Assembly: GCF_053078305.1 (NCBI RefSeq)
Contig: NZ_CP166879.1
Direction: 5' to 3' (one strand)
Length of the DNA: 64,000 nucleotides
The stretch's first letter is position 1; each line of letters starts with the position of its first letter. Below the pieces are notes generated by a model, which was not told the DNA's origin, made no database searches, and was given only the letters and a program-made list of their open reading frames with translations. The position numbers and the translations under genes are program-made. Shown one piece after another: positions 31,501-47,660 of this stretch.

Positions 31501-31595
31501 ATGACCGTATTAATTGTTTGTGCCGAAAACGGTCATTCCGGGCTTGGAGGAATAGAAAAATGACCGTTTTGATAAATATTTTTAAGAGCGGTCAT
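31501..31595. promoter_or_regulatory. Paired inverted repeats in the divergent fucPIKUR / fucAO control region (candidate operator sites)
   Basis: ATGACCGT-20 nt-ACGGTCAT (31501..31536) and ATGACCG-22 nt-CGGTCAT (31560..31595) within the 546-bp intergenic region. Confidence 0.5.
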
Positions 31596-31784
31596 TTTTA
31601 ATGGGGTTATAAAAAGAGAACTTGCAGTTATTTACTGTGATTAGTTGAACCAGGTCACAAAATATAAGCTTGTGAATTTCTTTCTGGTTAATCAGGAAGA
31701 AGATGGTGGGTAATTAAACGGCTAATTCAATAGTGTGAAAGGAACAACATTATTGCCCTGTTTTGAATCAGAGAGAGGTAGCTA

Positions 31785-40948: not shown

Positions 40949-41317
40949 GTCGACAGGGAGTCAGACAACGAAGTGAACATCAGGATGATGACACTTCTGA
41001 AGGACACACCAGGATGGTGTTTCAGGGAAAGGCTTCTGGATGAAGCGAAGAGGATGACGCAGGACGCGTTAAAGGACACCTCCAGGATGGAGAATGAGAA
41101 CCGGTCAGGATGATCCGGTGGGTCAGGAAGGCCAGGGACACTTCAGGATGAAGTATCACATCGGGGTGGTGTGAGCAGGAAGCAATAGTTCAGGATGAAC
41201 GATTGGCCGCAAGGCCAGAGGAAAAGTTGTCAAGGATGAGCAGGGAGCAACAAAAGTAGCTGGAATGCTGCGAAACGAACCGGGAGCACTGTGAATACAG
41301 TGCTCCCTTTTTTTATT
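40949..41317 (+). ncRNA. csrB: CsrB regulatory RNA (CsrA-sequestering)
   Basis: Starts GTCGACAGGGAGTCAGACAACGAAGTGAACATCAGGATGATGACAC…; carries many CAGGATG / AGGA repeats and ends in a strong hairpin (GGGAGCACTGTGAATACAGTGCTCCC) plus T-run. Confidence 0.92.
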
Positions 41318-42488: not shown

Positions 42489-42938
42489 ATGGCGGAAATT
42501 GGTATTTTTGTCGGCACCATGTACGGAAATTCGCTGTTAGTGGCGGAAGAAGCAGAAGCAATTCTGACCGCACAGGGCCACAAAGCAACGGTATTTGAAG
42601 ATCCTGAATTAAGCGACTGGCTGCCCTATCAGGATAAGTATGTTCTGGTGGTTACGTCCACGACCGGGCAGGGCGACCTTCCTGATAGCATTGTGCCGCT
42701 CTTTCAGGGAATCAAAGATAGTCTGGGCTTCCAGCCGAATCTGCGTTATGGCGTGATTGCGCTCGGCGACAGCAGTTATGTAAATTTCTGCAATGGCGGC
42801 AAACAGTTCGATGCCTTGTTGCAGGAACAGAGCGCTCAGCGGGTTGGCGAAATGCTGTTGATTGACGCCAGTGAGAACCCGGAACCGGAAACGGAATCAA
42901 ATCCGTGGGTCGAACAGTGGGGCACGCTGTTGTCCTGA
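42489..42938 (+). CDS. yqcA: Flavodoxin-like protein
   Basis: 149-aa ORF with flavodoxin-type FMN-binding N-terminus (…[10 protein letters not shown]…). Confidence 0.85.
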
Positions 42939-43372
42939 TATGTTCAGCGAGCGGTAAATGTCGTTTTAGCGGTGCTGAATCGAATCTTTTCAGGCAAATG
43001 CCAGTAAAAACTGCTTCATAGCGCGGATTTTTACTGGCGTTTGCCTGGAGTCAAGCGATCCATTTCATACTCTTCTTTATTTCTTCGTTTTAACCCTTCC
43101 TTTCTTGTTCTTGTTTTCATTTCCGTGAAGTGGATTCCACCGTCCAGGGCTAATGCCAAAATCGGGCCTCATTGAACGCATTAATGTTGTGTTGTTGCAC
43201 GGTGAGCCGCTATGGCGCGCTTTTTATACTGCTATTGCCAGATATAAACACGCGCCGTATTCGGCGAACGACCTATAAAAACGGCAAAAAACACCCTACG
43301 TCACCTCTGATTTCCTGGCGATGTCGCAGTCCAGAGTGAGCGTGGCTAACGCGAATTTTCAGGAGTGCAACA

Positions 43373-44725
43373 ATGAGTTCTTTAAGTCAGGCTGCGAGCA
43401 GTGTGGAAAAACGCACGAATGCTCGTTACTGGATAGTGGTGATGTTGTTTATCGTCACATCCTTCAACTACGGCGACCGCGCTACGCTTTCTATTGCCGG
43501 TTCGGAAATGGCCAAAGATATCGGCCTTGATCCCGTGGGAATGGGCTATGTGTTCTCTGCCTTCTCATGGGCTTATGTTATCGGGCAGATCCCTGGTGGT
43601 TGGTTGCTGGATCGTTTTGGTTCAAAACGCGTCTACTTCTGGTCGATCTTTATCTGGTCGATGTTTACCTTGCTGCAAGGCTTCGTCGATATCTTTAGTG
43701 GATTCGGCATTATCGTTGCCCTGTTTACTCTGCGCTTCCTGGTCGGGCTTGCTGAAGCGCCATCTTTCCCCGGCAACAGTCGCATTGTTGCGGCCTGGTT
43801 TCCGGCGCAGGAAAGGGGAACGGCGGTGTCGATTTTTAACTCCGCTCAATACTTCGCAACGGTGATCTTCGCGCCGATTATGGGCTGGCTGACGCATGAA
43901 GTGGGCTGGTCACACGTCTTCTTCTTTATGGGCGGTCTGGGGATTGTCATCAGCTTTATCTGGTTGAAAGTCATCCACGAGCCAAATCAACATCCGGGGG
44001 TAAATCAGAAAGAGCTGGAGTACATCGCCGCGGGTGGCGCGCTGATCAATATGGATCAGCAAAACACCAAAGTTAAAGTGCCGTTCAGCGTGAAGTGGGG
44101 GCAGATCAAACAACTGCTCGGGTCACGGATGATGATCGGCGTTTATATCGGTCAGTACTGTATTAACGCCCTGACTTACTTTTTCATTACCTGGTTTCCG
44201 GTTTATCTGGTGCAGGCGCGTGGGATGTCGATTCTGAAAGCGGGCTTTGTGGCTTCCGTTCCGGCGGTTTGTGGTTTTATCGGTGGTGTGCTGGGTGGGA
44301 TTATTTCCGACTGGCTGATGCGCCGCACGGGATCGCTGAACATTGCGCGTAAAACACCGATCGTAATGGGCATGTTGCTGTCGATGGTGATGGTGTTCTG
44401 CAACTACGTCAACGTTGAGTGGATGATCATCGGCTTTATGGCGCTGGCCTTCTTCGGTAAGGGCATCGGGGCGCTGGGTTGGGCAGTAATGGCAGATACC
44501 GCGCCAAAAGAGATCAGCGGTCTTTCCGGTGGCCTGTTCAACATGTTCGGTAACATTTCTGGCATCGTCACGCCAATCGCAATTGGTTATATCGTTGGCA
44601 CGACTGGCTCGTTTAATGGGGCGCTGATTTATGTTGGTGTTCATGCCTTAATCGCGGTACTGAGCTACCTGGTGCTGGTGGGCGATATCAAGCGTATCGA
44701 GCTGAAACCTGTCGCGGGGCAATAA
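43373..44725 (+). CDS. gudP: D-glucarate/galactarate transporter (MFS)
   Basis: 450-aa polytopic membrane ORF upstream of gudX/gudD. Confidence 0.9.
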
Positions 44726-47490: not shown

Positions 47491-47587
47491 GCCTGATGCG
47501 CTACGCTTATCAGGCCTACATGCTTTTTAATTTATTGAATTTAATTGGTTTTGTAGGCCGGATAAGGCGTTAACGCCGCATCCGGCA
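47491..47587. repeat. BIME / REP pair in the gudD-barA intergenic region
   Basis: GCCTGATGCGCTACGCTTATCAGGCCTACA … TGTAGGCCGGATAAGGCGTTAACGCCGCATCCGGC. Confidence 0.85.
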
Positions 47588-47660
47588 TAAACACAGGCAC
47601 TTTGTCACCAATCTGAAACCAGCGTCATAAAAAGCCGATTGCTACTCGACAAGACGTCCG

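Follow-up and report, generated by a model that had tools for sequence, protein, structure and literature searches.

A stem-loop without a U-tract probably defines the 3′ end of the yqcA message and is a remodelled terminator between the yqcA operon and the glucarate genes

Rho-dependent transcripts have been described that end just past stable stem-loops lacking U-tracts, with rut sites located downstream, and in the accompanying model PNPase and RNase II trim the transcripts back to the protective stem-loop (Dar & Sorek 2018, NAR 46:6797). A canonical intrinsic terminator, by comparison, consists of a GC-rich stem of roughly 5-14 bp with a loop of 3-8 nt, and a U-tract of roughly 7-9 nt lies directly 3′ of the stem. 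Here we characterize a long inverted repeat between yqcA and gudP in Escherichia coli. We consider it probable that this element is an exonuclease-blocking, 3′-end-defining stem-loop of a Rho-terminated yqcA transcript, and that it was derived from an intrinsic terminator.

The stretch of DNA that we analysed (64 kb, hereafter the window) carries the E. coli genes queF, syd, csrB, yqcC, truC, yqcA, gudP, gudX and gudD on its plus strand. From open reading frames and RefSeq annotation, the flavodoxin gene yqcA occupies 42489-42938 (plus strand) and closes the co-directional yqcC-truC-yqcA cluster, while gudP occupies 43373-44725 (plus strand) and opens the gudPXD operon. The gap between them measures 434 bp (42939-43372), the last base of the yqcA stop codon being 42938. 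Its sequence is identical in K-12 MG1655, which carries these genes on the minus strand, and a window position is obtained by subtracting the MG1655 coordinate from 2965473. RefSeq leaves the gap unannotated, except that a few genomes list a "hypothetical protein" of 42 aa on the minus strand. This ORF, with a TTG start, runs over 43031-43159, overlaps the 3′ arm of the repeat and corresponds to WP_001296328.1 in a minority of RefSeq E. coli genomes. In alignments read by eye, the frames at these positions differ among Salmonella, Citrobacter and E. coli; we rejected a minus-strand small protein as an account of the site, and the ORF is probably spurious. Elsewhere in the window, a full-length CsrB sRNA was found at 40958-41317 upstream of yqcC, as expected at this locus (Rfam RF00018, 384 bits). 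Downstream of gudD, the segment 47512-47592 gave sub-threshold Rfam matches to naRNA4 and ES036 and contains a 22-nt palindrome at 47554-47589; this element is probably a REP/BIME. A further inverted repeat, of 22 nt with no spacer and 82% complementarity, lies at 31556-31599 (AAAAATGACCGTTTTGATAAAT / ATTTTTAAGAGCGGTCATTTTT).

The preliminary description of this DNA, made from the sequence alone, had reported an 18-bp inverted repeat with one mismatch and an 18-nt loop, starting 55 bp past the yqcA stop within the 434-bp gap. The coordinates agree, and the 18-bp arms are found at 42993-43010 and 43028-43045, with complementarity that in reality spans 20 bp: the 5′ arm CAGGCAAATGCCAGTAAAAA (42991-43010, plus strand) pairs with the 3′ arm TTTTTACTGGCGTTTGCCTG (43028-43047, plus strand). 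The loop, on the other hand, was overstated by one nucleotide, since the spacer measures 17 nt (43011-43027, plus strand). Within the spacer, CTGC (43011-43014) pairs with GCGG (43023-43026), and only if this weak 4-bp inner stem forms does the loop shrink to 8 nt. The full hairpin predicted by RNAfold for the plus-strand RNA extends from 42988 to 43050, with 27 pairs, one bulged A and an 8-nt apical loop. Symmetry reaches, weakly, to arms of 35 nt, and all other local inverted repeats of the window are shorter. The arm pattern, allowing up to 3 mismatches, occurs twice compared to an expectation of 0.00 from 100 shuffles.

Folding of the region, a check that the preliminary description had proposed, gave −43.3 kcal/mol for the plus-strand RNA in RNAfold, in comparison to −17.8 ± 3.1 kcal/mol for shuffled sequences (z = −8.1; none of 200 shuffles was equal). 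The minus-strand RNA folds more weakly by 11.5 kcal/mol, because the sole mismatched arm position is a T:G, which forms a G-U wobble in the plus-strand RNA and becomes A-C in the minus-strand RNA. The stem is indeed, as had been claimed, far longer than that of a typical intrinsic terminator, and it bears no terminator hallmarks. At 20-27 bp, with an AT-rich inner half and a 17-nt spacer, it does not conform to the canonical stem, and we rejected a canonical terminator on this ground. The canonical U-tract is likewise not there: the stem is followed by GAGTCAAGCGATCC, no T-run follows the hairpin on either strand, and the longest U-run in the published data is 3. A terminator scan of the sequence did not flag the hairpin.

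Published transcript ends locate the terminus of the yqcA message relative to this structure. In the TRS data (Nat Commun 2023, PMC10687069), peaks assigned to yqcA fall at MG1655 2922415-2922428 on the minus strand, which is 43045-43058 on the plus strand of the window, and the dominant positions 2922417, 2922418 and 2922420 convert to 43056, 43055 and 43053. The supplementary sheets that list this terminus combine re-analysed published RNAtag-seq/Term-seq libraries with the TRS authors' own data. They give a 3′ UTR of 118 nt and no transcription start site within 150 nt, and class the terminus as "distant primary", meaning that none was placed within 100 nt of the yqcA stop. The mapped ends are 6-9 nt beyond the last pair of the 20-bp arms (43047) and 3-6 nt beyond the extended helix (43050). 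Since they lie 3-9 nt past the stem, the yqcA message carries the hairpin as its 3′-terminal structure. We conclude that the hairpin probably defines the 3′ end of this message and is a remodelled terminator between the yqcA operon and the glucarate genes. A 3′ end a few nucleotides past a stem is a property of canonical terminators; a stable stem-loop directly before the steady-state 3′ end, without a U-tract, is the property expected of a protective stem-loop, and both are found here. The curated Term-seq tables of Adams et al. (2021) contain no 3′ end at the hairpin, which fits low coverage there and is probably due to low expression. TERMITe 2025 has no entry for the site, and searches of the literature on yqcA with RNase III, terminator or sRNA, and on gudT with sRNA, returned nothing specific.

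The gap also lies in a region where transcription responds to Rho. Supplementary file 2 of Adams et al. (2021, eLife, PMC7815308) lists a Rho termination region in the yqcA-gudP gap, with a Rho score of 3.98 (p = 9e-8); in that study, a score exceeding 2 is read as Rho read-through. For the 800 nt on the upstream side and the 800 nt on the downstream side, DirectRNA-seq coverage amounted to 114 and 23 in the absence of bicyclomycin, and to 112 and 90 in its presence. Inhibition of Rho thus leads to read-through in the gap, at regional rather than nucleotide resolution. The highest Rho score is at 43355 on the plus strand (MG1655 2922118, minus strand), a position with a resolution of hundreds of nucleotides that was computed from 800-nt windows and sits about 300 nt downstream of the hairpin, in the gudP leader. 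This maximum could derive in part from attenuation of transcripts from the gudP promoter. Immediately downstream of the hairpin lies a C-rich, G-poor, rut-like sequence, as is found in Rho-terminated transcripts: a pyrimidine-rich tract at 43060-43124 (plus strand; A7 C18 G3 T37), which is a candidate rut site. The 78-nt segment 43048-43125 has a C/G ratio of 2.5 and ranks 23rd among 10,654 such segments on the strand (top 0.2%). Across the 38 species tabulated, C exceeds G in the spacer after the stem in every one (C/G 1.2-5.3), and Escherichia is among the most extreme.

The mechanism that we consider probable would operate as follows. The inverted repeat would be transcribed in the 3′ UTR of yqcC-truC-yqcA, fold into a very stable hairpin and set the steady-state 3′ end. 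RNA polymerase would pass the hairpin without a classical intrinsic stop, because no U-tract follows. Rho would load on the C-rich, G-poor tract just downstream and terminate transcription before gudP or within its start, and the 3′-to-5′ exonucleases PNPase and RNase II would trim the tail as far as the hairpin and come to a halt a few nucleotides short of its base, so that the 118-nt 3′ UTR remains. We infer here that the 3′ end is created by trimming, and that Rho acts specifically on read-through from yqcA as opposed to transcripts from the gudP promoter. The yqcA mRNA would be stabilised by the hairpin. The element would insulate gudPXD from the genes upstream, and hairpin and Rho would jointly bar constitutive upstream transcription from this regulated operon. 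A stem of 20-27 bp far exceeds what is needed to block an exonuclease, and a plain 3′ hairpin role does not account for the conserved sequence and constant spacing of the boxes on either side, described below.

We compared 80 yqcA loci from named genomes, 3 from protein look-ups and 8 from metagenomes. The yqcA-gudP junction is widely syntenic across the Enterobacteriaceae, and we found the hairpin in Escherichia, Salmonella, the Citrobacter koseri/amalonaticus/sedlakii group and Superficieibacter. Across a set of 15 orthologues, pairing in the 20-pair helix amounts to 86%, a share that falls to 35-53% upon shifting the 3′ partner by 1-3 columns. Two-sided changes occur at two pairs (A-U in 8, C-G in 4 and U-A in 2 at one; G-C in 9, G-U in 3 and C-G in 2 at the other), and the covariation score of these 15 orthologues was equalled by 1 of 500 shuffles. 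In quasi-palindromes, template-switch mutation can produce such "compensatory" changes without selection. One-sided changes are mostly to G-U in the plus-strand sense, including independent polymorphisms within E. coli, and the plus-strand RNA is more stable than the minus-strand RNA in every one of the six Escherichia lineages, as well as in most Salmonella and Citrobacter. This wobble bias and strand-biased folding point to selection on the plus-strand RNA.

The sister genera reveal what the element was built from. In Citrobacter, Raoultella, Superficieibacter and a related Enterobacter isolate, its centre has the layout of a classical terminator, with an A-tract, a GC stem and a U-tract; one example of such a core is AAAACCCTTTC-ATAC-GAAAGGGTTTT. 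A second short U-run, GTTTTCA or ATTTTCA, follows the outer stem in Citrobacter, Salmonella and Superficieibacter electus, and most sister genera have an extra canonical terminator (CCCTCCC...GGGAGGG) directly past the yqcA stop. In Escherichia, this yqcA-proximal terminator is missing, the inner GC stem is reduced to CUGC/GCGG, and the 3′ flank has changed from GTTTTCAT to GTTTGCCTG, which pairs with CAGGCAAAT, so that about five pairs were gained and the distal U-run is gone. As a result of these changes the E. coli hairpin is far more stable, at −26 to −39 kcal/mol over 64 nt in comparison to −14 to −28 kcal/mol for the orthologues. The CUGC/GCGG pairing is the putative degenerate inner stem of the ancestral terminator, and the 3′ arm contains the former inner U-tract (43028-43032) together with a mutated outer U-tract (GTTTG, once GTTTT). 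The history would then be one of an intrinsic terminator remodelled in Escherichia by decay of the inner stem, growth of the outer stem over the distal U-run and loss of the proximal terminator. Escherichia may offer a traceable conversion from an intrinsic to a Rho-dependent terminator through palindrome-extending mutations.

Where the module is missing, as in the C. freundii group, Enterobacter and Leclercia, another hairpin sits past yqcA. The hairpin in the equivalent place in the C. freundii group and Enterobacter is one that we take to be REP-like. Where yqcA has another downstream neighbour, the replacement hairpins are of the GC-rich terminator type, and in E. fergusonii and E. albertii, which have such a neighbour, a different hairpin follows yqcA. 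The niche after yqcA is therefore constant and its occupant variable. In two Citrobacter isolates, sp. Awk 4 and R56, apparently independent deletions have removed gudP and part of gudX. The left endpoints of both fall within the orthologous hairpin, in the 5′ arm or the loop, which suggests that the palindrome is a deletion hotspot.

Inspection of the alignments also revealed conserved boxes on either side of the hairpin. Box A, upstream, is the 16-nt sequence GCTGAATCGAATCTTT at 42974-42989 (ACTGAATCGAGTTAGC in other genera), and hardly varies from Salmonella to Kosakonia, Phytobacter and Silvania. It resembles the published Cra (FruR) consensus gcTGAAtCGaTTCAgc, matching 12 of 16 positions in E. 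coli and 13 of 16 in the other genera, a match quality that is at chance level within the window; Box A may be a candidate unmapped Cra site for gudPXD. Box B is GGGCAAATGCC. When metagenomes were scanned for the Box A-B pattern, only yqcA-gudP junctions were recovered, plus four unrelated chance matches. Box D, GTCAAGCGA-N6-TCATA at 43050-43069 (TCACA in place of TCATA in other genera), bounds the conserved gudP control region on its upstream side, and its GTCAAGCGA core is unchanged in all 25 aligned species, including those without the hairpin. Box D resembles a CRP-type half-site pair (xGxGA-N6-TCACA), and the mapped yqcA 3′ ends fall within it. The distance from Box A to the GTCAAGCGA core of Box D is 75-77 nt (67 in Salmonella), and that from Box D to a conserved TTTCATTTCCGTGAAG box upstream of gudP is 65-66 nt. 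On the minus strand, a promoter-like site occupies 43054-43027 (TTGACT, 16-nt spacer, AAAAAT). Its −35 falls within the invariant box and is conserved across genera, but its −10, which coincides with the A-run of the hairpin, is not.

We found no conserved promoter, ORF or multi-genus RNA fold that accounts for the boxes. There is no positionally conserved sigma-70 promoter on either strand, and comparison with the garP-garD control region yielded no common CdaR-type motif. RNAalifold, applied to the whole module across genera, gave support to no more than the yqcA-proximal terminator and a very small GGCA..TGCC hairpin. An independent sRNA gene between two terminators was considered and rejected, given no conserved sigma-70 promoter and no nearby transcription start site in the TRS lists (PMC10687069). 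A broader reading places the hairpin at the heart of a locus-specific module, about 120 nt long and with near-constant spacing, that is retained at the yqcA-gudP junction of at least 8 enterobacterial genera; the terminator would then be built into the control architecture of gudPXD, or be an undescribed cis-acting RNA. We regard this as doubtful. If it were true, upstream read-through, Rho and carbon-state regulators would be coupled at this site, and the element would be more than an insulator.

Among the other explanations, the closest to our own is that of a non-canonical intrinsic terminator acting without Rho, in which either the full hairpin or the inner CUGC/GCGG stem with its AUUUUU dislodges the polymerase and the mapped end is the true termination point. 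The ends 3-9 nt past the stem are as found for intrinsic terminators, the Citrobacter, Raoultella and Superficieibacter orthologues have canonical terminator anatomy, and E. coli keeps an inner stem flanked by A5 and U5. That inner stem, however, has only 4 bp, one of them a G-U pair, and no 3′ end was reported at its U5 (43028-43032) in the TRS data (PMC10687069). The full stem lacks a U-tract, with the longest U-run near the end being 3 and the terminator scan negative, and the about four-fold rise in downstream coverage with bicyclomycin (Adams 2021) is left unaccounted for by a Rho-free terminator. We think this explanation possible but unlikely. A cleavage site for RNase III would instead separate or destabilise the yqcA message, or a yqcA-gudP read-through RNA, by cutting the 20-27 bp duplex. 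RNase III substrates are duplexes of two helical turns, about 20 bp or more; the stem is of this size, and RNase III sites are over-represented in the untranslated and intergenic segments of transcripts. However, the stable 3′ ends map outside the stem and not as staggered cuts inside it, which indicates that the hairpin is intact at steady state, and the helices are shorter and interrupted in most orthologues. We consider an RNase III processing site improbable.

Similarly, little probability attaches to a role at the level of DNA, whether as a binding site for a gudPXD regulator, as nucleoprotein architecture or as the minus-strand promoter (TTGACT, 16-nt spacer, AAAAAT). The cross-genus boxes at fixed spacing, the likeness of Box A to the Cra consensus and the overlap of the promoter-like site with the 3′ arm are in its favour, but matches as good as the Cra-like one arise by chance in the window, the −10-like hexamer is weak and unconserved, and no motif is shared with the garP-garD control region. 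Furthermore, pairing is kept while the arm sequence varies, and the G-U wobbles favour plus-strand RNA over DNA symmetry. The varying arm sequence also leaves protein binding by the arms, one of three roles that had been proposed for the repeat, without support. The last explanation, a remnant of a small mobile element (MITE-like) or a member of another repeat family, draws on the long symmetry, which resembles terminal inverted repeats and extends weakly to 35-nt arms. Against it, a single copy of the gap was found in each of 5,425 genomes among the 5,426 complete ones of E. coli, with at least 99% identity in 5,324. A sensitive search with the 68-nt hairpin hit two places per E. coli genome, which we interpreted as one locus whose palindrome matches itself on both strands; the genome-wide arm search that had been suggested thus yielded no further copies. 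Phages gave no match, and the only three matching plasmid records are chromosome-sized, at 4.8-4.9 Mb. The position is syntenic and unchanged across several genera, the Box A-B scan of metagenomes was confined to this junction apart from the four chance matches, and none of the multiple copies, presence/absence polymorphisms or non-orthologous sites that mark a MITE was seen. We consider this origin extremely improbable. A REP/BIME would require hundreds of copies sharing a consensus and was rejected on the single locus per genome, as the preliminary description had correctly held, and Rfam covariance models applied to the whole window and 12 orthologous loci gave no match at the site at E ≤ 1, with CsrB upstream as the only hit. 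In one E. coli genome, NZ_CP095856.1, the gap matches only over its first 157 bp, owing to an insertion or deletion downstream of the hairpin, near window position 43095. Of the three proposed roles, a processed RNA structure is the one that stands, in the mundane sense that the message has its 3′ termini just past the stem, as would be expected where a hairpin halts 3′ exonucleases following Rho-dependent termination. The preliminary description had named transcript ends at a plain yqcA terminator, with no other copies, as the outcome that would count against its reading, and this is essentially what emerged, with published 3′ ends at 43053-43056.

A Rho-terminated message capped by a stem-loop, our preferred reading, would add one more annotated case to the U-tract-less 3′ structures of this kind, and the hairpin accounts for an unannotated 118-nt 3′ UTR in a model genome. 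The contrast between an intrinsic terminator in the sister genera and a U-less hairpin in Escherichia provides a concrete case for the suggested switching of termination mode by small changes next to a stem. The flanking boxes may mark unmapped regulator sites of the glucarate operon.

In comparison to known systems, the element shares with REP/BIME stabilisers of mRNA 3′ ends the niche after yqcA, but it has no REP sequence similarity and is single-copy and locus-specific. RNase III substrate hairpins, such as those in the rnc and pnp leaders, are also long, near-perfect RNA duplexes in untranslated regions, in contrast to which the mapped yqcA ends lie outside the duplex. Canonical intrinsic terminators, including bidirectional ones with an A-tract and a U-tract, are matched by the A-tract/GC stem/U-tract layout of the Citrobacter, Raoultella and Superficieibacter orthologues and by the E. 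coli end a few nucleotides past the stem; unlike them, the E. coli element has its U-run inside the stem and none after it, an AT-rich stem and an inner GC stem of 4 bp. The 3′ stem-loops of Rho-terminated mRNAs (Dar & Sorek 2018, NAR 46:6797) resemble it in having a stem-loop directly before a precise 3′ end with no U-tract, more C than G downstream and bicyclomycin-sensitive read-through in the region, and differ in that the yqcA stem, at 20-27 bp and −43 kcal/mol, is much longer than the terminator-like stems of that class. The yqcA hairpin thus belongs to a known class, its 3′ end already being present in published tables, and had not been individually described.
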